A stretch of DNA of 64,000 nucleotides from Spirochaetia bacterium (GCA_963662795.1 OY759746.1:1984001-2048000); one strand, 5' to 3'. Shown: positions 168 through 64,000, counted from the first letter of the stretch. The notes: a model not told the origin generated them from the sequence alone. Numbers and translations are program-made.

Positions 168-439
168 GTCCAGCCTTGGCTCCGCCGTGCGGCTTGGACA
201 AGAAGCGGCTGGTACTGGAGCATAACAGCGGTTAAAGCGCTGCGCTCGGATTACCTCGCTTGGCCTGCGGCAAACATCGTAGAGTTCAAAATACAACTGT
301 ATGTAACACCAGTTTTGAAAACAATAAATAAAAACTTTCTGTTATCTATTCTTAATCTACAATGCTTCGCTTAACCGCGGGACGTTATCCACAATGCCCC
401 CACAAGAGAAAATCGCCCGGACCTCCGGCCGACGGGCGA
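168..439 (+). repeat. Junction J0 (extended attC-like, core A)
   Basis: Hairpin-arm-TAAC(226)...GTT(384)-arm-hairpin. Confidence 0.9.
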
Positions 440-482
440 GGATAGTAAAAGTAGAATATTTTACAATAAAAGAGGTTTATTG

Positions 483-1820
483 ATGAAAATATCTGAGGTT
501 CTCAGTGAAACCAAATACATTATGTATTTTTTTGAATGCATTAAACTGACATATAAACCAAAAAAATTAATATCTTTTGCGGAAAAACAATCTACATCAA
601 ATATATTAAAAAATTCAATATTATTATTATTTATAGTTTCAGCATATTATTCATTAATTTTTATTATTTTTAATAATGATTATTCATTTGAGAAACAAAT
701 TAGGTTATCATTTAATTCATTGTTTTTATCATTAATATTTTTACCAAGTGTAATAGCTTCAATTTCGTTTAGAAAAAAAACTTTAAGATCAAGAGTAAAA
801 ACTGCATTTTATATATCAATAAATTTTATTGTCTTTTATTTATCAATACCCATTACTTTATATATAATATTTATTAAAACCGAAAAATATTTTTATTATT
901 ATTCATTTTGGATTGGATATTTTATAATTTGGATTTTTTGTATTGTAATTTTTCCAATACTAATAAATACCAGTTACAATAGAATATTTAGTACGTTACT
1001 TTCTATATTTCTTATAGTGATAATGAATATTACGATAAACCTGATTATTAGTAATGGTGATAATAATATTTTAGAAGAATTTGATCCGATAATTTATGAA
1101 AATAATAGTAAAAGAGTAATGGAAAATGCTCATATTGATTTTTTATCTGAAAATGGACAAATTATAGTGAGTAGTTTTAATAATTATCTTGATACTATGA
1201 AATATTATTATCTTGAAAATATAATGATAGAAGAAAAAACAATGGATTTGATAATTAGTAATTTACAAGATATAGAAAGTAAAATAACGTTTAAAACAAA
1301 TCAAGAAATAATAAAAACAAGTAAAGAAAAAGCCTTATTGCTAAAAAAAATTATTGTGCAAACAACTCGAATAAAAAAAATATCTGATGAATTACCTGAA
1401 GGATTAAAAAGAAGTATAGCTTTTAATGAAGAAGCAAATACGATACTTGTAAAAAATAAAGAACTTATTAAAGAAGAATTAAGAAAAATACAAGATATAG
1501 AAAATAGGATAAAAAATAATTCGAATGAAATAACAAATAAAGAAGCAATTAAAATAAAAGAAGAAATCAAACGAATGAGTATAAAATCAAAAGAATTAGA
1601 TGAAGAAATAGAAAAAATTACTGAACTACTAGAAAAATCACAGACTGAAATGGAAAACACAAAAGCCTATATTGATTATCTTCAAAAGGTTAATAGTGTT
1701 GGAAAAGAAGTAAATATAATAATAAATGATTATAATATTGTTACTCAGAATAGTATTAAAGCAGTTGAAAGAATAAATGCAATATATAAGATGAAAATAT
1801 TTTTTTGGATGTTTCCATAA
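483..1820 (+). CDS. Membrane protein, N-terminal multi-TM plus C-terminal coiled coil (C1; duplicate of C37)
   Basis: Hydrophobic N-half, E/K-rich heptads; GAGG RBS. Confidence 0.8.
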   Translation: MKISEVLSETKYIMYFFECIKLTYKPKKLISFAEKQSTSNILKNSILLLFIVSAYYSLIFIIFNNDYSFEKQIRLSFNSLFLSLIFLPSVIASISFRKKTLRSRVKTAFYISINFIVFYLSIPITLYIIFIKTEKYFYYYSFWIGYFIIWIFCIVIFPILINTSYNRIFSTLLSIFLIVIMNITINLIISNGDNNILEEFDPIIYENNSKRVMENAHIDFLSENGQIIVSSFNNYLDTMKYYYLENIMIEEKTMDLIISNLQDIESKITFKTNQEIIKTSKEKALLLKKIIVQTTRIKKISDELPEGLKRSIAFNEEANTILVKNKELIKEELRKIQDIENRIKNNSNEITNKEAIKIKEEIKRMSIKSKELDEEIEKITELLEKSQTEMENTKAYIDYLQKVNSVGKEVNIIINDYNIVTQNSIKAVERINAIYKMKIFFWMFP

Positions 1821-1888
1821 TACTTACTATGAAATATTGTATAAATAGGGCATGTAAAGGTAGAGTTATTGCTTGACATTTGAAAGAA

Positions 1889-2157
1889 GTCCGGCCTTGG
1901 CTCCGCCGTACGGCCTGGACAAGAAGTGGGGGCACTGGTGGATAACAGCGGTTAAAGCGCTGCGCTCGCAAGCTCGCTTGGGCTCCTGCCAGTTGTGCTG
2001 GCAGTTCGCCAAACATCGCAGCTTGAAATAAAAGTAAAAGAACTAAACAGCTTGTGGAATAATGTAATCATAAATTGCGATGCTTCGCTTAACCGCGGGA
2101 CGTTATCCACAATGCCCCCACAAGAGGAAATCGCCCGGACCTCCGGCCGACGGGCGA
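1889..2157 (+). repeat. Junction J1 (core A)
   Basis: TAAC(1946)...GTT(2102). Confidence 0.9.
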
Positions 2158-2233
2158 GGATGTAGTGCAATATGAAAAATGTACAGTATAATAATATATG
2201 TTAGGCGCAAATCATGTATCATGGAATACAATT

Positions 2234-3553
2234 TTAATGAAAAACAATACCATCTTTTTCTGACAGTTTGAGGAGAATCACAGTGATGATTAGCCCAATG
2301 ACTTCTGCAATTCCTACAGTAAACCAAATAATTGAATCTCCAAATAATACTGGTAATAGAGTGATTGAAATAGGGGTTAGAACTAGAGATCTAATACAAA
2401 CTGATATAACAGCATATTTTGTTCGTTTTGTGGAATAGAGATAAGTTGAAATCATCAAATTTAATGAAAGAACAATATAAGCCCAGCTAAATTTGGGTAG
2501 TGCTTCAATTGTAATTTGAAGAAGGAAGTTGTCAGAATTAAAAAGTGGGATAATTTTGCTTTTAAAAGTTACCAACAATAGAAAAACTATTGCTGCACTT
2601 AGAAAGTTGATCAACATACCAGAATGGAAATAAAATTTGAGATCTTTTTCATTTTTACGACCATAGCTTTGTCCGATTAATGGCTGCAACCCTTCAGATA
2701 TTCCAAAGAAGATACCTATTGAAAATGATGTCAAAAAGGAAATAATTGAAAAAGCTGAAACAGCATTATCACTAAGCGTTTTTATCAATATGTAATTCAT
2801 ACACAAAATTAACACTGGCATTCCAAATTGTGAGATCATTTCTGGCAACCCACGCATTAATACTTTTTTAAAGAGTAAAATTGATACAGAGAATCTTTTG
2901 ATTCTCAAATTTCCCCGATTTAGGGCAAAATGGCTTAACAGAATTACAAGAGTACCAATTTGTCCCACCCCTGATGCAATAGCCGCTCCTTTGACTCCCA
3001 TTTGCAAAGGAAATATGAATAGCCAATCTAGGGCAATATTCATTATGGTACCAATAATGACAGCAATGCTGACTAGTATCGGGGCGCCGTCATTCCGCAC
3101 GAATCCTTGAAGGATTATAGAAATAATTGCTGGAAGGAAGAAAGAGCTGACAAAGAAAATGTATTCGGATGTCATATCATGGAAAGTTTCGTTAGCGGCA
3201 CTTAACGTTGCGATTTGATTGGAAAAGACCATACCCAGAATCATGATGATAACTGATATCATAAATGATGCTGAAGTAGCGTGCATGAAAGCACTATTTG
3301 CCCCTTCAACATCGTTACGCCCAAGTCGTATTGCTGTAATGGTGATGCCGCCGATAGTCAACAGTATAGCAATGGCATTTGCCATAAGAGTGTACGGTAG
3401 TGCTAGGTTGACTGCACCTAAAGCAACGGCTCCAACACCGCGTCCAACAAAGATGCCGTCAACAATGATATAAAGGAAAACAGAGCATGAACCAGCGACT
3501 GTAGGGATAATGTAACGGAACATGTTTCGAGTTCTAACGTTAATTTTCTTCAT
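2234..3553 (-). CDS. MATE family efflux transporter
   Basis: ~12 TM; 'VDGIFVGRGVG..ALGAVNL', 'NIALDWLFIFPLQMGVKGAAIAS', 'QPLIGQSYG' motifs. Confidence 0.92.
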   Translation of the reverse strand: MKKINVRTRNMFRYIIPTVAGSCSVFLYIIVDGIFVGRGVGAVALGAVNLALPYTLMANAIAILLTIGGITITAIRLGRNDVEGANSAFMHATSASFMISVIIMILGMVFSNQIATLSAANETFHDMTSEYIFFVSSFFLPAIISIILQGFVRNDGAPILVSIAVIIGTIMNIALDWLFIFPLQMGVKGAAIASGVGQIGTLVILLSHFALNRGNLRIKRFSVSILLFKKVLMRGLPEMISQFGMPVLILCMNYILIKTLSDNAVSAFSIISFLTSFSIGIFFGISEGLQPLIGQSYGRKNEKDLKFYFHSGMLINFLSAAIVFLLLVTFKSKIIPLFNSDNFLLQITIEALPKFSWAYIVLSLNLMISTYLYSTKRTKYAVISVCIRSLVLTPISITLLPVLFGDSIIWFTVGIAEVIGLIITVILLKLSEKDGIVFH

Positions 3554-3555
3554 TT

Positions 3556-4011
3556 TTATTCTGCCTTACAAAGGATGGTTCTTGATTTTTCACGAAATAT
3601 TTTCAAAAAATTCCGAAGAGATTGCAGCATTGCAATTCGATCTGCATCGCTCATTTCCATTAAAGTAGATTCTTCCAGTTGAAATATGATATCAAATATT
3701 TTACTGGCAAAGATGCGACCGGATTCGGTCAATACGATTCTTTTACTCCGGTGGTCGCTTGTAGATATCTCCAAAAAAATAAGTCTTTTCTTTATGAGTT
3801 CTTGCAGTGCGCTATTTACAGTTTGCTTGCTCATGGACCATTGGTCACATATATTTTTCTGACTGCAATAATCATCAGATTCATAGAGTGCATATAACAC
3901 CCAATAACTACTGTCCGAGAGATTGCTTTGGCTTGCTAACTTTCTGTATATTGCGTCAGTCTCTTTCCAGAGAGAATTAAATTCATAAAGCTGGTCATGT
4001 AGTGTAGCCAT
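3556..4011 (-). CDS. MarR family transcriptional regulator
   Basis: 'SQKNICDQWSMSKQTVNS..L', 'DHRSKRIVLTESG' wHTH motifs; upstream of MATE. Confidence 0.92.
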   Translation of the reverse strand: MATLHDQLYEFNSLWKETDAIYRKLASQSNLSDSSYWVLYALYESDDYCSQKNICDQWSMSKQTVNSALQELIKKRLIFLEISTSDHRSKRIVLTESGRIFASKIFDIIFQLEESTLMEMSDADRIAMLQSLRNFLKIFREKSRTILCKAE

Positions 4012-4030
4012 ATATCCTCTTTTCCAATAA

Positions 4031-4076
4031 TAGTCCGAAATAAGACCAATATAAAGACTTTTATTTAACTAGTCAA
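4031..4076 (-). promoter_or_regulatory. Sigma70-like promoter and putative MarR operator
   Basis: TTGACT(4076-4071)-17-TATATT(4053-4048); imperfect palindrome TAGTCCGAAATAAGACCAA. Confidence 0.6.
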
Positions 4077-4106
4077 TAGGCAAATAAAAGAGAATAAAGA
4101 AAGTAA

Positions 4107-4379
4107 GTCCGGCCTTGGCTTCCCGCCGTGCGGCCTGGACAAGAAGTGGGGCACTGGTGGATAACAGAGGATAAGGCGCTTCGCTCGGAATACCTCGCTT
4201 GGCCTGCGGCAAACATCGTAGATTTTGAACTACAATTGCTATAATTAACAATTTTTTGAAGAAAAATATTGCAACTTTGGAATATTCATTCTTGGGCTAC
4301 GATGCGTCGCTTATCCTCGGGACGTTATCCACAATGCCCCCACAAGAGAAAATCGCCCGGACCTCCGGCCGACGGGCGA
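4107..4379 (+). repeat. Junction J2 (core B)
   Basis: TAAC(4166)...GTT(4324). Confidence 0.9.
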
Positions 4380-4982: not shown

Positions 4983-5256
4983 GTCCGGCCTTGGCTTCCA
5001 GCCGTGCGGCCTGGACAAGAAGTGGGGGCACTGGTGGATAACAGAGGATAAAGCGCTTCGCTCGGAGTACCTCGCTTGGCCTACGGCACACATCGCAGGT
5101 TTTGAAGTATAACTTCTATAAACAACTAGTTTTAAAAAATAAATACTGCAATTTTAAAAATATTATACATTGACTACGATGCGTCGCTTATCCTCAGGAC
5201 GTTATAAGCAATGTTCCCGCAAGAGAAAATCGCCCGGACCTCCGGCCGACGGGCGA
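4983..5256 (+). repeat. Junction J3 (core B)
   Basis: TAAC(5042)...GTT(5201). Confidence 0.9.
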
Positions 5257-7445: not shown

Positions 7446-7737
7446 GTCCGGCCTTGGCTCCGCCGTACGGCCTGGACAAGAAGCGGGAACACTGCTTATA
7501 ACAGCGATTATTTCGCTGCGCTCCCTGTGGTCGCTTGGGCTCCTGCCAGTTGAACTGGCAGATCGCCATATTTTGTTTTCTTAAAACCGGAACAACTTAT
7601 GTTTTTTGCTTTTTAAAGTTTGAAAAATACAAATAAAAGTATTTTAGAGTTTAGTCACAAAACATCGAATAATCGCGGGACGTTATAAGCAATGTTCCCG
7701 CAAGAGAGAATCGCCCGGACCTCCGGCCAACGGGCGA
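7446..7737 (+). repeat. Junction J4 (core C)
   Basis: TAAC(7502)...GTT(7682). Confidence 0.9.
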
Positions 7738-9023: not shown

Positions 9024-9276
9024 GTCCAGCCTTGGCTCCGCCGTGCGGCTTGGACAAGAAGCGGGAACACTGCTTATAACAGCGAATGACCGGTTTCGGC
9101 TGTTTCTAAGGAAGCAGCCTCCACCCAAATTGCCAAAATAATGCATGTTAAGAATAATGGAATAGAGTATAAACTTTCAGAGTGAAAAACACTATTGGCA
9201 ACTTCGGTCATTCGCGGGATGTTATAAGCAATGTTCCCGCAAGAGAAAATCGCCCGGACCTCCGGCCGACGGGCGA
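9024..9276 (+). repeat. Junction J5 (core D)
   Basis: TAAC(9080)...GTT(9221). Confidence 0.9.
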
Positions 9277-11571: not shown

Positions 11572-11827
11572 GTCCGGCCTTGGCTTCCAGCCGTGCGGCC
11601 TGGACAAGAAGCGGGAACACTGCTTATAACAGCGAATGGCCGGTTCCGGCTGTTTCTAAGGAAACAGCCTCCACCCAAATTGCCGAAGTAATACATGTTA
11701 AGAATAATGGAATAGAGTATAAACTTTTGGAGTAAAAAACACCATCGGCAACTTCGGTCATTCGCGAGACGTTATGCTCAATACCAGCCGCAAGAGGCAA
11801 TCGCCCGGACCTCCGGCCAACGGGCGA
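11572..11827 (+). repeat. Junction J6 (core D)
   Basis: TAAC(11630)...GTT(11771). Confidence 0.9.
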
Positions 11828-12755: not shown

Positions 12756-13047
12756 GTCCGGCCTTGGCGTTGCCGTGCGGCCTGGACAAGAAGCGGCTGG
12801 TACTGGAGCATAACAGCGATTATTTCGCTGCGCTCCTTGTGGTCGCTTGGGCTCCTGCCAGTTGAACTGGCAGATCGCCATATTTTGTTTTAATAAAACC
12901 AGAATGACATGTGTTTTATGTTTTTTAAGTTTGAAAAAACAAATAAATGTATTTTAGAGTTTAGCCACAAAACATCGCATAATCGCGGGACGTTATCCAC
13001 AATATCATCGCAAGAGAAAATCGCCCGGACCTCCGGCCAACGGGCGA
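12756..13047 (+). repeat. Junction J7 (core C)
   Basis: TAAC(12814)...GTT(12992). Confidence 0.9.
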
Positions 13048-14653: not shown

Positions 14654-14926
14654 GTCCGGCCTTGGCGTTGCCGTGCGGCCTTGGACAAGAAGCGATGATA
14701 CTGGTGGATAACAGAGGATAATTCGCTGCGCTCGGAGTACCTCGCTTGGCCTACGGCATATTTTGCTATCATCAAACTTGAACAATAAAAGTTAAACCCT
14801 TTTTAAATTTAATAAAGTAGACATAAATGTTTTAAAGTTTGAACCGCAAAACATCGCTTATCCTCGGGACGTTATAAGCAATGTTCCCGCAAGAGAAAAT
14901 CGCCCGGACCTCCGGCCGACGGGCGA
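14654..14926 (+). repeat. Junction J8 (core B)
   Basis: TAAC(14712)...GTT(14871). Confidence 0.9.
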
Positions 14927-15704: not shown

Positions 15705-15994
15705 GTCCAGCCTTGGCTCCGCCGTGCGGCTTGGACAAGAAGCGGGAACACAGCTTATAACAGCGATTATTTCGCTGCGCTCCCTATGGTCGCTTGGGCT
15801 CCTGCCAGTTGAGCTGGCAGATCGCCATATTTTGTTTTCTTAAAACCGGAACAACATGTGTTTTTACTTTTCAAGATTGATAAAACCAAATAAAAATATT
15901 TTAGAGTTTCGCCACAAAACATCGAATAATCGCGGGACGTTATAAGCAATGTTCCCGCAAGATGCAATCGCCCGGACCTCCGGCCGACGGGCGA
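15705..15994 (+). repeat. Junction J9 (core C)
   Basis: TAAC(15761)...GTT(15939). Confidence 0.9.
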
Positions 15995-16954: not shown

Positions 16955-17239
16955 GTCCAGCCTTGGCTCCGCCGTGCGGCCTGGACAAGAAGCGGGAACA
17001 CAGCTTATAACAGCGGATGACCGGTTTCGGCTGGTGGAGAGTAAAATATAAGGGAAAAACCAGCCTTCACCCAAATTGCCTATCTTGGAAACCTTTTTGA
17101 ATGTTATAAAATATTAGTGAAGAGTTTAATCAGCTGTTGTATAATCAATTGAATAATCCGGCAACTTCGGTCATCCGCGGGACGTTATAAGCAATGTTCC
17201 CGCAAGAGGAGATCGCCCGGACCTCCGGCCGACGGGCGA
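16955..17239 (+). repeat. Junction J10 (core D variant)
   Basis: TAAC(17011)...GTT(17184); compensatory GCGGATGACCG/CGGTCATCCGC. Confidence 0.9.
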
Positions 17240-18889: not shown

Positions 18890-19144
18890 GTCCAGCCTTG
18901 GCTTCCAGCCGTACGGCCTGGACAAGAAGCGGGAACACTGCTTATAACAGCGAATGGCCGGTTCCGGCTGTTTCTAAGGAAGCAGCCTCCACCCAAATTG
19001 CCGAAATAATAAATGTTAAGAATAATGGAATAGAGTATAAACTTTTAAAGTGAAAAACACCATCGGCAACTTCGGTCATTCGCGGGACGTTCTCCGAAAT
19101 ACCGCCCCAAGAGGAGACCGCCCGGACCTCCGGCCCACGGGCGA
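18890..19144 (+). repeat. Junction J11 (core D)
   Basis: TAAC(18948)...GTT(19089). Confidence 0.9.
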
Positions 19145-20046: not shown

Positions 20047-20311
20047 CCAAGCCTTGGCGGTGCCGTGCGGCTTGGAAGAAGGGGCGGTACTTCCGAGAAC
20101 AGAGGATAATGCGCTGCGCTCGGAATACCTCGCTTGGGCTTCGCCACACATCGCAGGTTTCGAACTACAACTTCCATTAACAACCAGGTTTTTGAAGAGA
20201 AATACTACAGCTTTAAAATAATAATAATATTCCAACGATGCGTCGCTTATCCTCGGGACGTTAGCAGCAATGCCCCCGCCAGGAGAGAGCTGCGTGCCGT
20301 CCTGGCACGCA
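20047..20311 (+). repeat. Junction J12 (core B)
   Basis: GAAC(20100)...GTT(20260); variant 5' hairpin TGCGTGCC-GTCCT-GGCACGCA. Confidence 0.88.
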
Positions 20312-20818: not shown

Positions 20819-21068
20819 AATCAATCTGCCGTCCATGGCAGATTGATTAAGGCGGGGGACACTGCAGCTAACAGCGAATGACCGGTTCCGGCTGTTTCTA
20901 AGGAAGCAGCCTCCACCCAAATTGCCGAAATAATACATGTTAAGAATAATGGAATAGAGTATAAACTTTTGGAGTGAAAAACATCATCGGCAACTTCGGT
21001 CATTCGCGGGACGTTATCCACAATGCCCCCACAAGAGAAAATCGCCCGGACCTCCGGCCGACGGGCGA
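20819..21068 (+). repeat. Junction J13 (core D)
   Basis: Variant 3' hairpin AATCAATCTGCC..GGCAGATTGATT; TAAC(20872)...GTT(21013). Confidence 0.88.
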
Positions 21069-23070: not shown

Positions 23071-23343
23071 GTCCGGCCTTGGCTTCCAGCCGTACGGCCT
23101 GGACAAGAAGTGGGGGCACTGGTGGATAACAGCGGTTCAAGCGCTTCGCTCGGATTACCTCGCTTGGCCTTCGGCATATTTTGTTGTCATTAAACACTTC
23201 AGTAAATCTTCTATTCTTTATAAGTATGAGAATAAGAACAAAATTATTATAGAGTTTGAGCCACAAAACATCGCTTAACCGCGGGACGTTATCCACAATG
23301 CCCCCACAAGATGCGATCGCCCGGACCTCCGGCCGACGGGCGA
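23071..23343 (+). repeat. Junction J14 (core A)
   Basis: TAAC(23130)...GTT(23288). Confidence 0.9.
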
Positions 23344-24228: not shown

Positions 24229-24498
24229 GTCCGGCCTTGGCTCCGCCGTACGGCTAGGACAAGAAGTGGGGACACTGGTGGATAACAGAGGATAATGCGC
24301 TTCGCTCCCTTTGGTCGCTTGGGCTTTGCCACACATCGTAGGTTTTAAACTATAACTTTTAGAAACAATAAATATTTGAAGAAATAAATTACAACTTTGA
24401 GCTTTTGTTTTTTATCTACGATGCGTCGCTTATCCTCGGGACGTTATCCACAATGCCCCCACAAGATGCAATCGCCCGGACCTCCGGCCGACGGGCGA
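24229..24498 (+). repeat. Junction J15 (core B)
   Basis: TAAC(24286)...GTT(24443). Confidence 0.9.
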
Positions 24499-26152: not shown

Positions 26153-26428
26153 GTCCGGCCTTGGCTCCGCCGTACGGCCTGGACAAGAAGTGGGGGCACT
26201 GGTGGATAACAGAGGATAAAGCGCTTCGCACGGAGTACCTCGCTTGGCCTGACGGCATATTTTACTATCATATAAATCAAAATAATTGATAGTTATCCTT
26301 TTTATATTTTGTTAATAAAATAAAAGCAATTTCTATAGTTATAACCGTAAAACATCGCTTATCCTCGGGACGTTATGCTCAATACCAGCCGCAAGAGGAA
26401 ACCGCCCGGACCTCCGGCCCACGGGCGA
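26153..26428 (+). repeat. Junction J16 (core B)
   Basis: TAAC(26210)...GTT(26372). Confidence 0.9.
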
Positions 26429-27443: not shown

Positions 27444-27714
27444 GTCCGGCCTTGGCGGTGCCGTGCGGCCTGGACAAGAAGCGGCTGGTACTGGAGCATA
27501 ACAGAGGATAAAGCGCTACGCTCGGAGTACCTCGCTTGGGCTTCGCCACACATCGTAGGTTTTGAACTACAACTTCAATAATCAACAAGTTTTGAAGAAA
27601 AATATTGTAACTTTGAATTATTCATTCTTAGTTTACGATGCGTCGCTTATCCTCAGGACGTTATACGTAATGGCCAGGCAAGAGAAATCGCCCGGACCTC
27701 CGGCCGACGGGCGA
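27444..27714 (+). repeat. Junction J17 (core B)
   Basis: TAAC(27502)...GTT(27660). Confidence 0.9.
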
Positions 27715-30103: not shown

Positions 30104-30393
30104 GTCCAGCCTTGGCTCCGCCGTGCGGCTTGGACAAGAAGCCTGGCCACTACGTATAACAGCGATTATTTCGCTGCGCTCCCTATGGTCGCTTGGGCTC
30201 CTGCCAGTTGAGCTGGCAGATCGCCATATTTTGTTTTCATAAAACCGGAACGGCATGTATTCTATGCTTTTTAAGTTTGAAAAAATTAAATAAAAGTATT
30301 TTAGAGTTTAGCCACAAAACATCGAATAATCGCGAGACGTTAGCAGCAATACGTCCCCAAGAGAAATCGCCCGGACCTCCGGCCGACGGGCGA
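30104..30393 (+). repeat. Junction J18 (core C)
   Basis: TAAC(30160)...GTT(30339). Confidence 0.9.
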
Positions 30394-31704: not shown

Positions 31705-31960
31705 GTCCGGCCTTGGCTTCCAGCCGTACGGCCTGGACAAGAAGGGGACGTACAGCTGCTAACAGCGAATGACCGGTTCCGGCTGTTTCTAAGGAAGCAG
31801 CCTCCACCCAAATTGCCGAAATAATACATGTTAAAAATAATGGAATAGAGTATAAACTTTTGGAGTGAAAAACACCATCGGCAACTTCGGTCATTCGCGG
31901 GACGTTATGCTCAATACCAGCCGCAAGATGCGATCGCCCGGACCTCCGGCCAACGGGCGA
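31705..31960 (+). repeat. Junction J19 (core D)
   Basis: TAAC(31763)...GTT(31904). Confidence 0.9.
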
Positions 31961-32939: not shown

Positions 32940-33232
32940 GTCCGGCCTTGGCGTTGCCGTGCGGCCTGGACAAGAAGCGGCTGGTACTGGAGCATAACAG
33001 CGATTATTTCGCTGCGCTCCCGATGGTCGCTTGGGCTCCTGCCAGTTGAGCTGGCAGATCGCCATATTTTGTTTTCATAAAACTGGAAGAACATGTATTT
33101 TATGCTTTTTAAAGTTTAAAAAACTAAATAAAAGTATTTTAGAGTTTAGCCACAAAACATCGAATAATCGCGAGACGTTATCCACAATATCATCGCAAGA
33201 TGCGATCGCCCGGACCTCCGGCCCACGGGCGA
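32940..33232 (+). repeat. Junction J20 (core C)
   Basis: TAAC(32998)...GTT(33177). Confidence 0.9.
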
Positions 33233-34393: not shown

Positions 34394-34664
34394 GTCCGGC
34401 CTTGGCGGTGCCGTACGGCCTGGACAAGAAGCGATGATACTGGTGGATAACAGAGGATAATGCGCTTCGCTCCCTTTGGTCGCTTGGGCTTCGCCACACA
34501 TCGTAGGTTTTGAACTACAACATTTATAAACAACAAGTGTTGGGAGAAGAATATTGCAGCTTTGGTATATTCATTCTTGGGTTACGATGCGTCGCTTATC
34601 CTCGGGACGTTATCCACAATATCATCGCAAGATGAGATCGCCCGGACCTCCGGCCCACGGGCGA
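34394..34664 (+). repeat. Junction J21 (core B)
   Basis: TAAC(34451)...GTT(34609). Confidence 0.9.
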
Positions 34665-35825: not shown

Positions 35826-36096
35826 GTCCGGCCTTGGCGGTGCCGTACGGCCTGGACAAGAAGCGATGATACTGGTGGATAACAGAGGATAATGCGCTTC
35901 GCTCCCTTTGGTCGCTTGGGCTTCGCCACACATCGTAGGTTTTGAACTACATTGTTTAGAAACAACAGGCTTTAAAAGAGACAAATTACAACTTTGGAAT
36001 ATTCATTCTTGGGCTACGATGCGTCGCTTATCCTCGGGACGTTATAAGCAATGTTCCCGCAAGAGGAAATCGCCCGGACCTCCGGCCGACGGGCGA
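35826..36096 (+). repeat. Junction J22 (core B)
   Basis: TAAC(35883)...GTT(36041). Confidence 0.9.
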
Positions 36097-37491: not shown

Positions 37492-37744
37492 GTCCAGCCT
37501 TGGCTCCGCCGAGCGGCTTGGACAAGAAGCGGGAACACTGCTTATAACAGCGAATGACCGGTTCCGGCTGTTTCTAAGGAAACAGCCTCCACTCAAATTG
37601 CCGAAATAATACATGTTAAGAATAATGGAATAGAGTATAAACTTTTGGAGTGAAAAACACCATCGGCAACTTCGGTCATTCGCGAGACGTTAGCAGCAAT
37701 ACGTCCCCAAGATGCAATCGCCCGGACCTCCGGCCCACGGGCGA
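37492..37744 (+). repeat. Junction J23 (core D)
   Basis: TAAC(37548)...GTT(37689). Confidence 0.9.
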
Positions 37745-38689: not shown

Positions 38690-38943
38690 GTCCGGCCTTG
38701 GCGGTGCCGTGCGGCCTGGACAAGAAGGGACGTACTGCTGCTAACAGCGAATGACCGGTTCCGGCTGTTTCTAAGGAAACAGCCTCCACCCAAATTGCCG
38801 AAATAATACATGTCAAGAATAATGGAATAGAGTATAAACTTTTGGAGTTAAAAAAACACCATCGGCAACTTCGGTCATTCGCGAGACGTTATATGCAATA
38901 CGACCCCAAGAGGACGCCGCCCGGACCTCCGGCCCACGGGCGA
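38690..38943 (+). repeat. Junction J24 (core D)
   Basis: TAAC(38745)...GTT(38888). Confidence 0.9.
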
Positions 38944-42466: not shown

Positions 42467-42756
42467 GTCCGGCCTTGGCGGTGCCGTGCGGCCTGGACAA
42501 GAAGGGGTCGTACTGCATATAACAGCGATTATTTCGCTGCGCTCCCTGTGGTCGCTTGGGCTCCTGCCAGTTGAGCTGGCAGATCGCCATATTTTGTTTT
42601 CATAAAACCGGAACAACATGTGTTTTATACTCTTCAAGTTTGTAAAAACCAAATAAAAGTATTTTAGAGGTTAGTCACAAAACATCGAATAATCGCGAGA
42701 CGTTCTCCGAAATACCGCCCCAAGAAGAGATCGCCCGGACCTCCGGCCCACGGGCG
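42467..42756 (+). repeat. Junction J25 (core C)
   Basis: TAAC(42523)...GTT(42702). Confidence 0.9.
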
Positions 42757-43550: not shown

Positions 43551-43833
43551 CCAAGCCTTGGCGGTGCCGTGCGGCTTGGAAGAGAGGGGCGGTACTTCGG
43601 AGAACAGCGATTATTTCGCTGCACTCCCGATGGTCGCTTGGGCTCCTGCCAGTTGAACTGGCAGATCGCCATATTTTGTTTTCATAAAACCAGAACTGCA
43701 TGTATTTTATGTTTTTTATGTTTAAAAAACCAAATAAATGTATTTTTAGAGGTTAGCCACAAAACATCGAATAATCGCGAGACGTTATTTGAAATGCCCC
43801 GTAGGAAAATATATCGCGCCTTCCTGGCGCGAT
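43551..43833 (+). repeat. Junction J26 (core C)
   Basis: GAAC(43605)...GTT(43784); variant 5' hairpin. Confidence 0.88.
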
Positions 43834-43878
43834 GGGAAATTCTAAAGACTAATGGAAATTAGTTAAAATGAAATGTAA

Positions 43879-44289: not shown

Positions 44290-44290
44290 T

Positions 44291-44521: not shown

Positions 44522-44637
44522 AAAGACCTCTTATAATCTAGTATAGTAAGCTAGTAGCATAAAGTCAAGAAATATAGTAAAGAATAATTACAAGAGTAAA
44601 AACTTTTAATTTTGTAAGATATAGCGCTAAAGCAAGA

Positions 44638-44902
44638 AAGCCTATAGACGTCCTGTCTATAGGCTTAATACGGGGCACTTCAAATAACAGAGGATAATGC
44701 GCTACACTCGGAGTACCTCGCTTGGCCTGCGGCACACATCGTAGATATTAAGAATACAGCTTCTATAAACAACAAGTTTTTGAAAAAATATATTACAACT
44801 TTTAGGTATTCACACTTATCCTACGATGCGTCGCTTATCCTCGGGACGTTATATGCAATACGACCCCAAGAGAAATCGCCCGGACCTCCGGCCCACGGGC
44901 GA
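44638..44902 (+). repeat. Junction J27 (core B)
   Basis: Variant 3' hairpin AAGCCTATAGAC..GTCTATAGGCTT; TAAC(44688)...GTT(44848). Confidence 0.88.
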
Positions 44903-47196: not shown

Positions 47197-47449
47197 GTCC
47201 GGCCTTGGCGGTGCCGTGCGGCCTGGACAAGAAGGGGTCGTACTGCATATAACAGCGAATGGCCGGTTCCGGCTGTTTCTAAGGAAGCAGCCTCCACCCA
47301 AATTGCCGAAATAATTCATGTTAAGAATAATGGAATAGAGTATAAACTTTTAAAGTGAAAAACACCATCGGCAACTTCGGTCATTCGCGGGACGTTATCC
47401 ACAATACCCCCACAAGAAGCGATCGCCCGGACCTCCGGCCGACGGGCGA
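47197..47449 (+). repeat. Junction J28 (core D)
   Basis: TAAC(47253)...GTT(47394). Confidence 0.9.
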
Positions 47450-48205: not shown

Positions 48206-48477
48206 GTCCGGCCTTGGCTCCGCCGTACGGCCTGGACAAGAAGTGGGGGCACTGTTGGATAACAGAGGATAATTCGCTGCGCTCGGAATACCTCGCTTGG
48301 CCTGCGGCATATTTTGCTATCAATAAAACAGTTCATATTATATTTTTACTCTCTTTAAATATATTTCCCAAGACTATTATGTTAAAAAAGGTTTTAGCAA
48401 AACATCGCTTATCCTCAGGACGTTATCCACAATGCCCCCACAAGATGCGATCGCCCGGACCTCCGGCCGACGGGCGA
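48206..48477 (+). repeat. Junction J29 (core B)
   Basis: TAAC(48263)...GTT(48422). Confidence 0.9.
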
Positions 48478-49203: not shown

Positions 49204-49475
49204 GTCCAGCCTTGGCTCCGCCGTACGGCCTGGACAAGAAGTGGGGGCACTGGTGGATAACAGAGGATACTGCGCTACGCTCGGAGTACCTCGCTTGGCC
49301 TTCGGCACACATCACAGGTTTTAAATTACTGCTTTTAGAATTAACAAGTTTTCAAAAGAAAGATATATAATATTTGTCTTTTTATTCATTGGCTGTGATT
49401 CGTCGCGTATCCTCAAAACGTTATCCACAATGCCCCCACAAGAGAAAATCGCCCGGGCCTCCGGCCGACGGGCGA
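49204..49475 (+). repeat. Junction J30 (core B, partly degenerate)
   Basis: TAAC(49261)...GTT(49420). Confidence 0.88.
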
Positions 49476-50233: not shown

Positions 50234-50506
50234 GTCCGGCCTTGGCTTCCAGCCGTGCGACCTGGACAAGAAGTGGGGGCCCTGGTGGATAACAGAGGAT
50301 AAAGCGCTTCGCTCGGAGTACCTCGCTTGACCTTCGGCACACATCGTAGGGTTTAAACTACCTCTTTAAGAAATACTTAGTTTTGGAAGAAAAATATTAC
50401 AACTTTGAAATAATAATTCTTGAGCTACGATGCGTCGCTTATCCTCGGGACGTTCTCCGAAATACCGCCCCAAGAGGAGACGCCCGGACCTCCGGCCCAC
50501 GGGCGA
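50234..50506 (+). repeat. Junction J31 (core B)
   Basis: TAAC(50293)...GTT(50452). Confidence 0.9.
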
Positions 50507-51405: not shown

Positions 51406-51666
51406 CCAAGCCTTGGCGGTGCCGTGCGGCTTGGAAGAAGGGGCGGTACTTCCGAGAACAGCGGTTAAAGCGCTACGCTCGCAGTAGCTCGCTTGGGCTC
51501 CTGCCTGTGCGCAGGCAGTTCACCAAAAAAACACGAGTTACTCCAAGCTATAAATTAAAGAAAGTAAACATACAATGCAAATAGATTAATGTGTTTTCTT
51601 CGCTTAACCGCGGGACGTTATTTGAAATGCCCCGTAGGAAAATATATCGCGCCGTCCTGGCGCGAT
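51406..51666 (+). repeat. Junction J32 (core A)
   Basis: GAAC(51459)...GTT(51617). Confidence 0.88.
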
Positions 51667-51711
51667 GGGAAATTCTAAAGACTAATGGAAATTAGTTAAA
51701 ATGAAATGTAA

Positions 51712-52122
51712 TTATAAAGTATTGAGACCAGCTTTGATACAAGCTGCTGTTAATTCTTTATCTAAAGATCCTATTGAACCCTGTTTTCTAATTCCAAGTT
51801 CCAAATAAGCAGCATCATAAGCACTTAAGTTATAGATCTGAGTAAGTTCCAGAAGTTTTTCAGTATATTCACTACCATAATTTGAATCAGTTATAAAATT
51901 AAATGAAGAAAGAAGCTTATTAATATTTAGAACATCATTGTGTTTTAAGCGTTTTCTTTTTACAGCAGTTGTTAAAACATTACTCATTTCATACCACCAT
52001 AGTAGAGGAATATAAACTTCATCATTTTCTTCAATATTTAGAAAAGATTTTTTAATAATTTCTGATTTTTCATCAGGAAGAAATAGAGATGCACAAAAAG
52101 AGCAATCAAGAATATAAACCAT
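51712..52122 (-). CDS. vapC: PIN-domain toxin (same protein as 43879)
   Basis: Identical translation. Confidence 0.9.
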   Translation of the reverse strand: MVYILDCSFCASLFLPDEKSEIIKKSFLNIEENDEVYIPLLWWYEMSNVLTTAVKRKRLKHNDVLNINKLLSSFNFITDSNYGSEYTEKLLELTQIYNLSAYDAAYLELGIRKQGSIGSLDKELTAACIKAGLNTL

Positions 52123-52123
52123 T

Positions 52124-52354
52124 TTATTTCCTGCCAGATTTAATAGCTTCAAGTATGTTAAATTTCTCGTTTAAAGAGCTTTGATATTGAAATAATTGTG
52201 CAATTATCTCTTTACGAAGATATGTGTCTTCAGAAAAAGGAATAATTTTAGCAACAGGTTTTCCTCTTTTTGTTATGGTATAATTCTTGCCTTTTTGAAC
52301 TTCTTCAATTATTTCTGAAAAATGTGTTTTAGCATCAAAAGTACCAATGTTCAT
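52124..52354 (-). CDS. Phd/YefM antitoxin (same protein as 44291)
   Basis: Identical translation. Confidence 0.9.
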   Translation of the reverse strand: MNIGTFDAKTHFSEIIEEVQKGKNYTITKRGKPVAKIIPFSEDTYLRKEIIAQLFQYQSSLNEKFNILEAIKSGRK

Positions 52355-52470
52355 ATCGTCCTCTTATAATCTAGTATAGTAAGCTAGTAGCATAAAGTCA
52401 AGAAATATAGTAAAGAATAATTACAAGAGTAAAAACTTTTAATTTTGTAAGATATAGCGCTAAAGCAAGA

Positions 52471-52733
52471 AAGCCTATAGACGTCCTGTCTATAGGCTTA
52501 ATACGGGGCACTTCAAATAACAGAGGATAAAGCGCTACGCTCCCTTTGGTCGCTTGGGCTTCGCCACACATCGTAGGGTTTTTACTACAACATCTAAAAA
52601 CAACAAGTTTTGGAAGAAAATATTGCAACTTTGAAAATATCATTCTTATCCTACGATGCGTCGCTTATCCTCGGGACGTTATATGCAATACGACCCCAAG
52701 AGAAAATCGCCCGGACCTCCGGCCCACGGGCGA
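52471..52733 (+). repeat. Junction J33 (core B)
   Basis: TAAC(52521)...GTT(52678). Confidence 0.88.
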
Positions 52734-54686: not shown

Positions 54687-54940
54687 GTCCGGCCTTGGCG
54701 GTGCCGTGCGGCCTGGACAAGAAGGGGTCGTACTGCATATAACAGCGAATGACCGGTTCCGGCTGTTTCTAAGGAAACAGCCGGAACCCAAATTGCCGAA
54801 ATAATACATGTTAAGAATAATGGAATAGAGTATAAACTTTTGGAGTGAAAAACACCATCGTCAACTTCGGTCATTCGCGAGACGTTATGTGCAATGAGCC
54901 CGACAAGAGGAAGACGCCCGGACCTCCGGCCGACGGGCGA
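54687..54940 (+). repeat. Junction J34 (core D)
   Basis: TAAC(54743)...GTT(54884). Confidence 0.9.
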
Positions 54941-56994: not shown

Positions 56995-57237
56995 TCCAGA
57001 CCTAACTCCGTTGAACGGTCTGGATGTCGGGCTCACAGCACATAACAGCGAATGACCGGTTCCGGCTGTTTCTAAGGAAGCAGCCTCCACCCAAATTGCC
57101 GAAATAATACATGTTAAGAATAATGGAATAGAGTATAAACTTTTTAAAGTGAAAGACACCATCGGCAACTTCGGTCATTCGCGGGACGTTATACGAAAGA
57201 CCGCGCCAAGAGAAATGCTCGCCATCCATGGCGAGCA
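56995..57237 (+). repeat. Junction J35 (core D)
   Basis: Variant hairpins; TAAC(57046)...GTT(57188). Confidence 0.88.
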
Positions 57238-58259: not shown

Positions 58260-58268
58260 GAGAAAAAA

Positions 58269-60014: not shown

Positions 60015-60278
60015 TTAAGCTACGCCATCCATGGCGTAGCTTAAAGGCGCGGTCCTTCGTATAACAGAGGATAATTCGCTGCGCTCGGAGTACCTCGCTT
60101 GGCCTTCGGCATATTTTGCTATCATCAAACTTGAATAGTAAAAGTAAACCCCTTTTCAAAGTATATAAAGTAGACATAAATGTTTTAGAGTTTGAACCGC
60201 AAAACATCGCTTATCCTCGGGACGTTATCCACAATGCCCCCACAAGAGAAATCGCCCGGACCTCCGGCCGACGGGCGA
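60015..60278 (+). repeat. Junction J36 (core B)
   Basis: Variant 3' hairpin TTAAGCTACGCC..GGCGTAGCTTAA; TAAC(60065)...GTT(60224). Confidence 0.88.
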
Positions 60279-61709: not shown

Positions 61710-61979
61710 GTCCGGCCTTGGCTCCGCCGTACGGCCTGGACAAGAAGTGGGGGCACTGGTGGATAACAGCGGTTAAAGCGCTGCGCTCGCAAGCTCGCTT
61801 GGGCTCCTGCCAGTTGTGCTGGCAGTTCGCCAAACATCGCAGCTTGAAATAAAAGTAAAAGAACTAAACAGCTTGTGGAATAATGTAATCATAAATTGCG
61901 ATGCTTCGCTTAACCGCGGGACGTTATGCTCAATACCAGCCGCAAGAGGAAATCGCCCGGACCTCCGGCCGACGGGCGA
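61710..61979 (+). repeat. Junction J37 (core A)
   Basis: TAAC(61767)...GTT(61923); core matches J1. Confidence 0.9.
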
Positions 61980-62054: not shown

Positions 62055-62081
62055 TGACCCTATGGGCCAAAAGGAGAAAAT

Positions 62082-63002
62082 ATGATAAATATCAAAGAGT
62101 TAAACCAACTAAGAAAAGATTTTACGACTATTTATGAAGCGTATAAATCTGATAACTCATTAAAACCAAGACTGAAAGAAATTGTCTTCAACTTAGAAGA
62201 AATGCAAAAACAATTTGACATTGAATCTGGCTTTGCAGAGGCTCAGCAAATTGTTCACGATCTTTTAGTTGCAATACCAACAGAAAATTTAGGTAAACTT
62301 GAAAATCGAAAAGCATTAAATATTGCTGAAAATGTTCAAGCCTTGGCTGATATTATACAACCTAATAATGAAGAAAGTATGGAAATTAGCTTGGCTGGTA
62401 TAAGTCCTGGAAGTGCAATCCTGATGTATGATTTTATACAAAAAGAGAAAAAAGGATTGGCTCCATTCGTCAATGTAGAAGAAACAAAAGAGCGAATTAC
62501 TAAGATTATAAAAACAGCCCCTATGTTAATGGAGAAAAATTTCAATAAAACTAAATTTGAAGAATTTAAAAAAGAAACTGGTATAAAAGATGAAAGTGCT
62601 TATGAAATAGCAAAGACTATATTAAAAATTGTACCAGCAACAAGTGATATAAATGATAATATTATATTTTCAATAAATAACGAAAAAGAAAAAATTGATT
62701 TAAATATTGAGAAGGCAGATAGGCTGAATATAGCAAAAGCAAAAACAAATATATATAATATAGTAAAACCTGAGGAGCGTAAAGAATTAGAAGGTAAATT
62801 GGGAATAATGGAAGAATGGGATGTGAATCATAAAATTGTAATTATTGATGTTGATAGGAATAATTATACTGTAAATTATGAGCCAACACAACAAAACCTA
62901 AAAAAAATTAAAGACAATATTGGCAAAGAAGTAAAAATAAGACGTGAAAAGGATCCTGATGATAATAGGCGTTGGATTTTAACTGAATGGGTAAAAAAAT
63001 AG
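62082..63002 (+). CDS. Hypothetical protein
   Basis: AGGAG RBS, 306 aa; possible OB-like C-terminus. Confidence 0.65.
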   Translation: MINIKELNQLRKDFTTIYEAYKSDNSLKPRLKEIVFNLEEMQKQFDIESGFAEAQQIVHDLLVAIPTENLGKLENRKALNIAENVQALADIIQPNNEESMEISLAGISPGSAILMYDFIQKEKKGLAPFVNVEETKERITKIIKTAPMLMEKNFNKTKFEEFKKETGIKDESAYEIAKTILKIVPATSDINDNIIFSINNEKEKIDLNIEKADRLNIAKAKTNIYNIVKPEERKELEGKLGIMEEWDVNHKIVIIDVDRNNYTVNYEPTQQNLKKIKDNIGKEVKIRREKDPDDNRRWILTEWVKK

Positions 63003-63011
63003 GAGGTAATT

Positions 63012-63812
63012 ATGAGAAGTCATAGAATTGTCCTATTATTATCAGTTTTCTTAATTAGCATCTTTGGAGTTTATTTTTATTTAAATACAAATAGACACCA
63101 ACCAATAAATCTGGTATTAACTCTTGAAACAAATATAAATGATAAATTAGTTATAAGTGAAAAATCATTATCCGAATTGAATCATATAATTAATGAAAAT
63201 CTTATTGTAAAAGATCAGAACAAATTAATTGAAATATTTCAGGAAGAAAAATCAAATTATATAAATTTAATTACTATAATTTCAATTCTGCTAACTGTTT
63301 TTAGTTTATATACAGTCTTAAGTGCTTTTGTTGAAAAAAATGAAATAAACAGATTAAGTCAAGATATGAAGGCTAAAATTGATGAGTATGAAGGTGAATT
63401 ACAAAATGTGTATTTTAATACACTTATATCACATATTCAAAAAGTGAAGGAATCATATATAAATGGTTCAACAAAATGTCTTGAAGACGGATTAAAAGTA
63501 TCTGATTCGCCATCATTTTTGAAGGCTATAAATCTTGATCTTGGTAGTTTGTTTGAGTTTATTCGCAGGAAAGAATTGACACAAAGAATCAATGATAAAA
63601 GCTTTTTTATTGAATATGCAAATCTAACATTTGCACTAATTAAATATGGATTTGATAAAAAATATCTTCCAAATAGTGATTACAATATGAATGAAAATGA
63701 AGTTTTTAGGTTTAGCATTTCAATGTTGCATAATAATATCGATAAAAAGATTTTCAAGGATTTTAAAGAAACTATTAGTCAATTTAAAACTATTGAATGG
63801 GGTCGTTATTAA
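63012..63812 (+). CDS. Hypothetical membrane protein (2 TM)
   Basis: AGGAGG RBS, two hydrophobic helices. Confidence 0.65.
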   Translation: MRSHRIVLLLSVFLISIFGVYFYLNTNRHQPINLVLTLETNINDKLVISEKSLSELNHIINENLIVKDQNKLIEIFQEEKSNYINLITIISILLTVFSLYTVLSAFVEKNEINRLSQDMKAKIDEYEGELQNVYFNTLISHIQKVKESYINGSTKCLEDGLKVSDSPSFLKAINLDLGSLFEFIRRKELTQRINDKSFFIEYANLTFALIKYGFDKKYLPNSDYNMNENEVFRFSISMLHNNIDKKIFKDFKETISQFKTIEWGRY

Positions 63813-63927
63813 TCTAATTACTGTTTCAATCTGATAATTCCTATTGTCACACTTTTTGCTGTCGTCATTATAGGCTAAAAGTCAACAATCTCTTCTGGCC
63901 AAATTACAAACTAGGCATATGTTCTAA
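63812..63927 (+). repeat. Nested degenerate attC (C38)
   Basis: ATCTAAT..TTCAATCTGA..TTGTCAC (as in the 7278 site)...GTTCTAA. Confidence 0.5.
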
Positions 63928-63946
63928 TAATTAAAAAAGAAAAGAA

Positions 63947-64000
63947 GTCCAGCCTTGGCTCCGCCGTGCGGCTTGGACAAGAAGCGGCTGGTACTGGAGC
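63947..64000 (+). repeat. Junction J38 (truncated)
   Basis: 3' hairpin plus arm GCGGCTGGTACTGGAGC. Confidence 0.85.

Follow-up and report, generated by a model that had tools for sequence, protein, structure and literature searches.

Cassette-specific complementary arms with a fixed mispair in a Spirochaetia integron-like array headed by a recombinase without the IntI domain

The cassette array and its sites

The stretch of DNA analysed here, hereafter the window, comprises 64,000 nucleotides (nt), i.e., positions 1,984,001-2,048,000 of the single 3.93-Mb contig (C1; 39.7% GC) of a Spirochaetia bacterium, and represents the middle part of an integron-like cassette array in which the two ends of nearly every cassette are complementary to each other. 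The genes in the window are AT-rich and almost all located on the + strand, with long GC-rich repeats between them. The entire array extends from 1,847,953 to approximately 2,180,000 and consists of about 189 cassettes in 331 kb, corresponding to 8.4% of the genome, with a GC content of 31% as compared to 39.7% for the genome. Its cassettes are parted by imperfect palindromic sites with AAC...GTT cores and it opens beside a recombinase gene, which is the arrangement by which an integron is recognized.

The sites in the window were located independently of the complementary ends (the arms), by means of their conserved inner flanks (AAC followed by AG.. on one side, ..GAC followed by GTT on the other). 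This returned 38 complete attC-like sites, with R'' AAC triplets ending at positions 226 to 61767 and R' GTT triplets starting at 384 to 61923, and one further site that is cut at base 64000. Genome-wide, detection by complementarity of the L' and L'' boxes alone identified 186 sites and missed four short ones. On the + strand, a site opens with a conserved hairpin, which an AAGAAG linker connects to a variable arm (~20 nt, with AAC as its last bases) and the L'' box; its 3' part consists of the L' box, GAC and a variable arm (~20 nt, with GTT as its first bases), which an AAGAG linker joins to a second conserved hairpin. The core between the arms (L'', loop and L') usually measures 140-179 nt in total; two sites that the scan did not detect have a core of only ~70 nt (1,863,331-1,863,401 and 1,982,276-1,982,346).

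The features of the window are listed below in window positions; coordinates of the array as a whole and of recombinase genes refer to contig C1. Pairs of arms that the initial annotation of this DNA had cited as examples are marked as quoted.

207..403, + strand: site 1; 3' arm 207-226 (cut first cassette), core, 5' arm 384-403 (cassette 1)
1927..2121, + strand: site 2; 3' arm 1927-1946 (cassette 1), core, 5' arm 2102-2121 (cassette 2)
4146..4343, + strand: site 3; 3' arm 4146-4165, 5' arm 4324-4343
5023..5220, + strand: site 4; 3' arm 5023-5042, 5' arm 5201-5220
7483..7701, + strand: site 5; 3' arm 7483-7502, 5' arm 7682-7701
9061..9240, + strand: site 6; 3' arm 9061-9080, 5' arm 9221-9240
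11611..11790, + strand: site 7; 3' arm 11611-11630, 5' arm 11771-11790
12795..13011, + strand: site 8; 3' arm 12795-12814, 5' arm 12992-13011
14693..14890, + strand: site 9; 3' arm 14693-14712, 5' arm 14871-14890
15742..15958, + strand: site 10; 3' arm 15742-15761, 5' arm 15939-15958
16992..17203, + strand: site 11; 3' arm 16992-17011, 5' arm 17184-17203
18929..19108, + strand: site 12; 3' arm 18929-18948, 5' arm 19089-19108
20081..20279, + strand: site 13; 3' arm 20081-20100, 5' arm 20260-20279
20853..21032, + strand: site 14; 3' arm 20853-20872, 5' arm 21013-21032
23111..23307, + strand: site 15; 3' arm 23111-23130, 5' arm 23288-23307
24267..24462, + strand: site 16; 3' arm 24267-24286, 5' arm 24443-24462
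26191..26391, + strand: site 17; 3' arm 26191-26210, 5' arm 26372-26391
27483..27679, + strand: site 18; 3' arm 27483-27502, 5' arm 27660-27679 (quoted)
30141..30358, + strand: site 19; 3' arm 30141-30160 (quoted), 5' arm 30339-30358
31744..31923, + strand: site 20; 3' arm 31744-31763, 5' arm 31904-31923
32979..33196, + strand: site 21; 3' arm 32979-32998, 5' arm 33177-33196
34432..34628, + strand: site 22; 3' arm 34432-34451, 5' arm 34609-34628
35864..36060, + strand: site 23; 3' arm 35864-35883, 5' arm 36041-36060
37529..37708, + strand: site 24; 3' arm 37529-37548, 5' arm 37689-37708
38726..38907, + strand: site 25; 3' arm 38726-38745, 5' arm 38888-38907
42504..42721, + strand: site 26; 3' arm 42504-42523, 5' arm 42702-42721
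43586..43803, + strand: site 27; 3' arm 43586-43605, 5' arm 43784-43803 (quoted)
44669..44867, + strand: site 28; 3' arm 44669-44688 (quoted), 5' arm 44848-44867
47234..47413, + strand: site 29; 3' arm 47234-47253, 5' arm 47394-47413
48244..48441, + strand: site 30; 3' arm 48244-48263, 5' arm 48422-48441
49242..49439, + strand: site 31; 3' arm 49242-49261, 5' arm 49420-49439
50274..50471, + strand: site 32; 3' arm 50274-50293, 5' arm 50452-50471
51440..51636, + strand: site 33; 3' arm 51440-51459, 5' arm 51617-51636
52502..52697, + strand: site 34; 3' arm 52502-52521, 5' arm 52678-52697
54724..54903, + strand: site 35; 3' arm 54724-54743, 5' arm 54884-54903
57027..57207, + strand: site 36; 3' arm 57027-57046, 5' arm 57188-57207 (quoted)
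60046..60243, + strand: site 37; 3' arm 60046-60065 (quoted), 5' arm 60224-60243
61748..61942, + strand: site 38; 3' arm 61748-61767, 5' arm 61923-61942
63985..64000, + strand: cut last 3' arm, start only; matches the 5' arm at 61923 as far as readable
27688..27714, + strand: example of the GC-rich hairpin inside a 5' arm, after the AAGAG linker; moves with the cassette
30104..30135, + strand: example of the GC-rich hairpin inside a 3' arm, before the AAGAAG linker

The GC-rich hairpins just inside both arms, to which purine-rich linkers connect them, are present genome-wide in 161 and 135 copies on the + strand. T-rich runs follow both of them on the non-coding strand, so that they could terminate antisense transcription. 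A few cassettes (in the window those opening at 57188, 43784 and 20260) carry different hairpins at the same places. Scanning the window against Rfam at gathering thresholds returned no matches.

Arm pairing, covariation and the fixed mispair

In every one of the 37 complete cassettes of the window, the first 21 nt (beginning with the opening GTT) can be aligned, with scores of 12-17, to the reverse complement of the cassette's own final 21 nt (up to and including the closing AAC), and the match of the last cassette (from 61923) holds up to the window edge. The initial annotation had reported such complementarity for 38 units: pairing is indeed found in every complete unit, although the window holds 37 complete cassettes plus two cut ones rather than 38. 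The three examples that it quoted (27660/30141, 57188/60046 and 43784/44669) are located exactly as given, and its count of 12 arm variants is correct, as the 13 distinct 20-nt 5' arms of the window reduce to 12 when one single-base variant is merged.

At first pass, cognate arms were found for 177 of the 185 intervals of the array. In four of the eight exceptions a short site had been overlooked; divided at that site, each gives two cassettes, for which the partner arms were found, so that the final count is 185 cognate cassettes out of 189, with four hybrids. In 1000 permutations of the partners, the score attained by 177 of the 185 true pairs was reached on average by 42 and at most by 59 of the 185 cassettes; a chance origin of the arm pairing is excluded. 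Arms that flank one and the same site, i.e., those of neighbouring cassettes, do not pair in 133 of 186 sites.

Throughout the array, 39 distinct 5' arms and 59 distinct arm combinations are present, the four commonest arm types occurring in 32, 16, 15 and 13 copies. The paired arms form an R-box stem of 15-20 base pairs (bp), which consists of 10 bp, one fixed mispair at position 11 and then 4-9 bp more. Covariation was counted by script across the 59 combinations, the two arms of a cassette being non-contiguous in the genome, and the covariation for which the earlier annotation had proposed to test is present. Arm positions 1-3 are invariant and positions 4-5 nearly so, while each of positions 6-9 and 13-20 exhibits three to four different Watson-Crick pair types, with few mispairs. 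Position 11 is A in the 5' arm and C in the 3' arm in 56 of the 59 combinations and in 173 of the 177 scored cassettes, the remainder being three A/T and one A/A; the A/C mispair, read as A.C on the coding strand, is a T.G wobble when read on the non-coding one. At position 10, 40 combinations have A-T and 17 have A/A, and 17 of the 59 contain a 1-nt bulge in the 3' arm. Outside position 11, wobble-type pairs are limited to three G.T and seven A.C or C.A (59 combinations x 20 positions, coding strand).

The statement in the annotation that all units keep an A opposite C at position 11 thus holds for the window cassettes, but array-wide the figure is 173 of 177 and position 10 is also often mispaired, while the occasional 1-nt bulge that it mentioned was indeed observed. 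Its view that the arms are selected for structure rather than for sequence is borne out by the three to four pair types at the variable positions, both here and in other genomes (see below); however, positions 1-4 and 10-12 are kept as sequence, and the arms are therefore not purely structural.

The unit that moves

The array contains 22 families of duplicated cassette bodies at different array places (window examples 43784-44688 and 51617-52521), which allow the constant unit to be delimited. Of 38 duplicate pairs, 37 agree fully in the cassette's own 5' arm and 35 in its own 3' arm, as compared to four that agree fully in the 5' arm of the next cassette. Identity of at least 95% is reached by the downstream core in 15 of the 38 pairs and by the upstream core in none (0/38), the corresponding figure for random core pairs being 10 of 300. 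The constant unit is therefore the arm-to-arm body, and any core that moves along is the downstream one. That the downstream core, and never the upstream core, accompanies the body is the polarity expected of a crossover at GTT, the placement of which can be made no finer than the conserved GAC-GTTA.

Cassette bodies were also found as contigs, with 0-18 differences, under a second organism label of another study (X4) and in a groundwater metagenome (X7). The sequence runs compared are assembled contigs that break at the conserved repeats, so that joints fall inside repeats, and the comparison is confined to covered parts away from these joints.

As inverted repeats of ~20 bp bound every unit, each unit might be regarded as a small transposon-like element, e.g., a miniature inverted-repeat transposable element, that is moved by a transposase acting on its termini. 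One transposase could not, however, read 39 distinct 5' arms; no target-site duplications are present in the junctions read; and the units border on attC-like hairpin sites that share one orientation and follow a single tyrosine recombinase gene. We consider this explanation extremely unlikely, and transposons were rejected as a class to which the system could be assigned.

The linked recombinase

A gene encoding a tyrosine recombinase of 339 amino acids (aa) is located at 1,846,782-1,847,801, directly upstream of the array and on the same strand, as had been anticipated when a linked tyrosine recombinase was proposed from the window. The first 5' arm begins 152 bp past its stop codon, at an attI-like junction that is unlike the sites just before GTT, and pairs with the 3' arm closing the first cassette, which encodes a VapBC-like pair.

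The protein scores 214.5 bits against the XerA model (cut-off 220), 175 bits against XerC (cut-off 335), 173 bits against XerD (cut-off 330) and 200.1 bits against the IntI model TIGR02249 (cut-off 265), the latter in two stretches that skip model positions 173-229. As it falls below every curated Xer cut-off, assignment to Xer/dif dimer resolution (XerC, XerD, XerA) was rejected. Alignment to VchIntIA (2a3v) likewise yields two blocks, with 24 residues in the recombinase where VchIntIA has 66. In an alignment of five proteins, an extra stretch of ~41 residues is present only in the canonical IntI of the related genome G011 and is missing from the four array-linked recombinases, while all five share the catalytic residues R, K, HxxR, H and Y. 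Judged by these alignments, the array recombinase is Xer/IntI-like and without the IntI-specific domain (I2 helix region). Integron biology attributes the use of folded single-stranded sites by a tyrosine recombinase to this domain, together with extrahelical bases.

The enzyme acting on the array is most likely this upstream recombinase. The genome also contains a canonical IntI-type gene at 412,089-413,302, for which two partial hits of 176 and 196 bits together cover the full length of the model. A frame change and stop codons disrupt this gene, which lies beside insertion sequence (IS)-type genes, with no array nearby. Two Xer-like genes are located inside the array on the opposite strand, namely at 2,050,713-2,051,597 (minus; 294 aa; ~2.7 kb beyond the window end) and at 1,881,758-1,882,309 (minus; an open frame of 233 aa).

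Arms behind related recombinases and a canonical control

A search for relatives of the recombinase returned 80 loci, 45 of which have at least 1.5 kb of downstream sequence. The nearest relatives (79% and 54% identity) are from Spirochaetia metagenome-assembled genomes, and most of the remaining ones are Bacteroidota by record titles (Flavobacterium, Prolixibacteraceae, Bacteroidales and others), at 38-47% identity. In the 54% relative, the gene is directly followed by five consecutive cassettes with their own arms of 15-19 nt, which differ in sequence from the arms of the present genome and carry A/C at position 11 in each case.

The family-wide search employed exact 9-nt seeds (and, earlier, 10-nt seeds), positions 11-15 being examined only afterwards; a filter of at least 5 of 6 pairs at positions 12-17 is too strict, because Bacteroidota arms end at approximately position 15. 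Downstream of the related recombinases, 109 seeded pairs have positions 12-15 all paired, and 106 of these carry A/C at position 11. This set contains 95 distinct arm pairs (67 with the stricter seed), and across the 67 arm pairs of other genomes each of positions 12-15 displays three to four Watson-Crick pair types. The upstream control regions (672 kb, as compared to 382 kb downstream) gave eight seeded pairs, none with A/C and five with G/T, the latter being the mirror image expected of oppositely oriented arrays. Seeded cassettes were found at 27 of the 45 loci, 22 of which have two or more. Bacteroidota arms measure ~15 bp and their sites have the same one-sided spacer; the outer hairpins are absent from these relatives.

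The relatives G011, G057, G020 and G007 also carry such arms with A/C at position 11. G011 (C1:3,220,200-3,240,199) belongs to another genus and its recombinase is 46% identical, and it shares three 20-nt arm types with the present genome; these common arm types suggest a shared cassette pool. No arrays were found downstream of the recombinase relatives at 36-39% identity in G028, G005 and G008, which are probably ordinary Xer-type genes.

IntI scored above the model cut-off in 15 of 61 related genomes. The canonical IntI neighbourhoods of G011, G005, G054 and G052 were examined, and only that of G052 was usable as a control. In G011, G005 and G054, whose IntI genes are intact, arm-bearing cassettes are absent from the 20 kb to either side, and the downstream 20 kb searched for repeats yielded no repeat array of attC type; the G011 array adjoins the domain-less recombinase and not the canonical IntI of that genome. 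G052, a same-class relative, possesses an IntI of 504 bits with a typical array beside the gene, and in all ten of its cassettes (10/10) the contiguous arm pairing from GTT/AAC outward is limited to 3-8 bp, with 5-14 of 20 positions pairing. R-box pairing in classical integron cassettes amounts to ~7 bp. The long arms thus track the domain-less recombinase rather than the host lineage. The suggestion in the initial annotation that the arms define a distinct recombinase or site class is consequently strengthened by a linked enzyme without the IntI domain, by the same arms behind its relatives in two phyla and by the 3-8 bp of the canonical array.

These comparisons also bear on whether the arms have a function at all. 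Complementarity could be maintained without selection, either through mismatch correction or templated repair in a transient hairpin or through recent common descent, and the sharing of a few arm types by many cassettes (the 32, 16, 15 and 13 copies mentioned above) would be in keeping with this. Templated correction would, however, erase the A/C mispair that is kept in 173 of 177 cassettes here and in 106 of 109 elsewhere, the 95 further arm pairs in other phyla hold the same geometry, and the canonical array of a relative is without such pairing; functionless arms are thus very unlikely.

A role at the RNA level would be conceivable, the ends of a cassette transcript pairing to form, e.g., an RNase III stem at which the array transcript is cut into single-gene mRNAs capped by hairpins. 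Precursors of rRNA are processed through pairing of the sequences that flank the gene, and the arms and GC-rich hairpins do sit in the untranslated ends of + strand genes. Against this, pairing starts exactly at the GTT/AAC recombination core, and the mispair on the sense strand is A.C and not G.U; the scarcity of wobble elsewhere, with only three G.T outside position 11, also argues against an RNA stem, in which G.U would usually be common. The Bacteroidota arms, moreover, are without outer hairpins and are always found downstream of the recombinase. An RNA function is accordingly regarded as quite unlikely.

Predicted folds and strand

A site with two arms of the same type, which equals the junction of an excised circle, was folded as single-stranded DNA. 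On the non-coding strand, the arms are predicted to form one continuous stem that contains a single bulge; next come an internal loop (5 nt versus 1 nt) and an L stem with one extrahelical T, while the two outer hairpins fold separately. The predicted energy is -64.1 kcal/mol for the non-coding strand (z-score -5.8) and -60.0 kcal/mol for the coding strand.

The 141 sites with unlike neighbouring arms were re-built by script with the 5' arm of their own cassette. The mean predicted energy of the non-coding strand is -42.3 kcal/mol with own arms versus -29.1 kcal/mol in the array context, i.e., ~13 kcal/mol better, and an arm stem of at least 15 pairs is formed in 133 of the 141 circle-context folds versus 41 of the 141 array-context folds. 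In 53 of these 141 resident sites with unlike arms, the arm pairs number seven or fewer. The non-coding strand is predicted to be more stable in 174 of 185 sites. From these models and from the T.G wobble, we infer that the site is used as a folded single-stranded non-coding strand.

Judged by cumulative GC skew, replication starts near 1.40 Mb and ends near 3.44 Mb. The array therefore runs in the direction of replication, with its non-coding strand as the leading-strand template. This is relevant to another possible function of the arms, in which the two ends of a resident cassette would pair on single-stranded DNA of the replication fork, loop out the gene and bring the flanking sites together, thus promoting excision. 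The same complementarity would fit such a scheme, and resident sites with unlike arms fold poorly, so that an aid to synapsis would be useful. Arms that are 0.5-5.9 kb apart would, however, have to compete with local hairpins, little single-stranded DNA is exposed on a leading-strand template (according to the accessible part of PMC5371416), and the fixed mispair is explained no better. Such pairing within the array appears unlikely.

Proposed mechanism

The arms probably represent the two halves of an extended R-box stem, which reunite only in the excised circle of an integron-like array. The proposal of the initial annotation that they extend the stem in the circle finds support, at the sequence level, in arms that begin at the GTT/AAC core, in the polarity of the mobile unit and in the predicted folds.

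The system is envisaged as a sedentary array whose sites are long attC-like palindromes, composed of R'' (AAC), L'', a variable loop, L' and R' (GTT). The crossover would occur at or beside GTT, the sequence from GTT outward being that of the next cassette; with a crossover at this place, the halves of the R-box stem would come to sit at the two ends of the inserted cassette and would meet again in the circle. Selection on the folded single-stranded site of the circle would keep the arms complementary while their sequences drift, and such selection would result in arm covariation. A recombinase without a domain for extrahelical bases may need a long duplex-like arm, and the T.G wobble may both mark the folded strand and tell the fold from ordinary double-stranded DNA. 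An Xer binding arm measures 11 bp, and the position-11 mispair would be located at the outer end of an arm of this size. As the arms match only in the circle, free cassettes would lend themselves to insertion and resident sites would serve poorly for excision, and insertion favoured over excision would help to stabilise a very large array.

Several observations weigh against this interpretation. By the strict seed, 18 of the 45 related loci are without a cassette, although some of these show arms with a position-10 mismatch under a fuzzy search. A single crossover at GTT does not predict that the downstream core differs, with both arms kept, in 23 of the 38 duplicate pairs. These differences between duplicate copies imply that cores reassort relative to bodies, possibly as a result of core turnover by homologous exchange or of occasional recombination through the other strand. 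The IntI gene is broken in this genome and intact in relatives, so that IntI may act in trans in Spirochaetia. The strand assignment draws solely on nearest-neighbour energies and the wobble argument. Finally, four of the 189 cassettes possess non-cognate arms with no partner arm inside, and may be deletion fusions:

C1:1,917,504-1,919,245 (genome coordinates): hybrid-arm cassette
C1:2,059,803-2,061,157 (genome coordinates): hybrid-arm cassette
C1:2,123,233-2,125,457 (genome coordinates): hybrid-arm cassette
C1:2,159,450-2,161,314 (genome coordinates): hybrid-arm cassette

Comparison with described systems

The array resembles chromosomal integrons, such as the Vibrio cholerae superintegron, in its recombinase gene beside an attI-like junction, its one-directional cassettes without promoters, and its imperfect palindromes, which have AAC...GTT cores, a spacer that is unpaired and asymmetric, and an L stem with an extrahelical base. 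The polarity of the unit is also that expected of a crossover at GTT, and toxin-antitoxin and defence-like cargo is present. A further likeness is the non-coding strand on the leading-strand template, an arrangement that the accessible part of PMC5371416 gives for 25 of 30 sedentary chromosomal integrons and ties to large, stable arrays. It differs in that the recombinase is without the IntI domain, scores below the IntI cut-off and is transcribed in the direction of the cassettes, and in that the R-box measures 15-20 bp with a fixed A.C/T.G and the spacer is strongly one-sided (5 nt versus 1 nt).

Within the portions of the literature available to us, rAID-1 of Bacteroidales (Ross et al. 2019, 10.1101/471110) is the published system that comes closest; it is described as a 5' XerD-like recombinase with at least two co-directional downstream genes, low GC content and repetitive intergenic sequences, further criteria being a recombinase more than 44% identical to a B. 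fragilis reference protein and orphan immunity genes as cargo. The present array is similar by description in its 5' recombinase, co-directional genes, low GC content (31% versus 39.7%) and repetitive intergenic sequence, and relatives of its recombinase include many Bacteroidales/Bacteroidota loci (38-47% identity) with the same arms. It differs in its Spirochaetia host, its 20-bp arms, its defence-like and mixed cargo and its length, which is ~20 times the 16 kb given for rAID-1 in the available text. The available texts of 10.1101/471110 and of a 2025 follow-up (PMC12247911), excluding the supplementary motif figure, mention no hairpin, cassette boundary, arm or mispair, the former reporting motif enrichment only.

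As far as the excerpts of the relevant papers extend, the nearest described precedent for an Xer-type enzyme acting on a folded strand is the integration of CTXphi, in which one strand pair is exchanged between folded single-stranded DNA and a double-stranded site (PMC3442271). The consulted part of PMC4792948 states that the CTXphi stem 'mimics a ds-DNA molecule', presents this integration as the only comparable reaction and speculates on an Xer-like ancestor that gained a domain. By analogy with CTXphi/XerCD, in which the enzyme is likewise without an IntI-like extra domain, an arm stem of 15-20 bp would mimic a duplex. CTXphi differs in that one phage genome is integrated by host enzymes at dif, with no dedicated recombinase and hundreds of exchangeable cassettes, and in that no fixed wobble at arm position 11 is described in those parts of the CTXphi papers.

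According to the portion of PMC9024848 that was available, IntegronFinder 2.0 lists one complete integron in Bacteroidetes, yet 27 of the 45 related loci, which are mostly Bacteroidota, bear arm cassettes. Published accounts of extended R-box or arm pairing, of Xer-type integron-like arrays and of Bacteroidota cassette arrays were searched, with subscription papers and supplements outside the search, and neither cassette-specific arms nor the position-11 mispair was found. As far as searched, the site code of arms plus wobble is undescribed in print, and the array looks like a little-described sister system of integrons.

Cassette cargo

Of ten large proteins scanned, nine have Pfam matches. 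Defence-like or signalling proteins abound in the cargo and include a kinase, T5orf172, an LRR-Roc-COR GTPase, an OLD-type ATPase with TOPRIM, DUF4365 with TPR repeats, an ApeA-type HEPN protein, AAA_15/21 ATPases and a HerA-type helicase. Genes of this cargo in the window are as follows.

9387-10877: defence-like/signalling gene
17276-18853: defence-like/signalling gene
27757-30057: defence-like/signalling gene
39046-40605: defence-like/signalling gene
45040-47055: defence-like/signalling gene
52822-54531: defence-like/signalling gene
55010-56980: defence-like/signalling gene
58269-60014: defence-like/signalling gene

A MatE transporter gene at 2234-3553 (minus strand) is reversed inside the otherwise ordinary cassette 2102-4165.

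Implications

The array is integron-like in its working and yet fails the defining integron test, the IntI domain; a recombinase without this domain heads one of the largest cassette arrays known to us. The code of its sites is simple and conserved: 10 bp, a fixed wobble and a further 4-9 bp. Integron-finding software that is keyed on the IntI domain will miss such arrays. The system bears on the origin of integrons from Xer-type systems, as well as on how strand and fold can be recognized without an extra domain. Tentatively, and with slightly less than even confidence, we propose that it belongs to a separate ancient integron-like branch, represented in Spirochaetia and Bacteroidota, whose Xer-like enzyme never gained the extra domain of IntI. 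In its stead, this enzyme would read a duplex-like arm of ~11 bp ending in an obligatory G.T wobble, which only one folded strand could display. As the arm halves are cassette-specific and would reunite only in the circle, free cassettes would be competent and resident ones locked, a switch permitting arrays of hundreds of kilobases. Such a branch could represent the state before classical integrons, between CTXphi-type Xer reactions and IntI.

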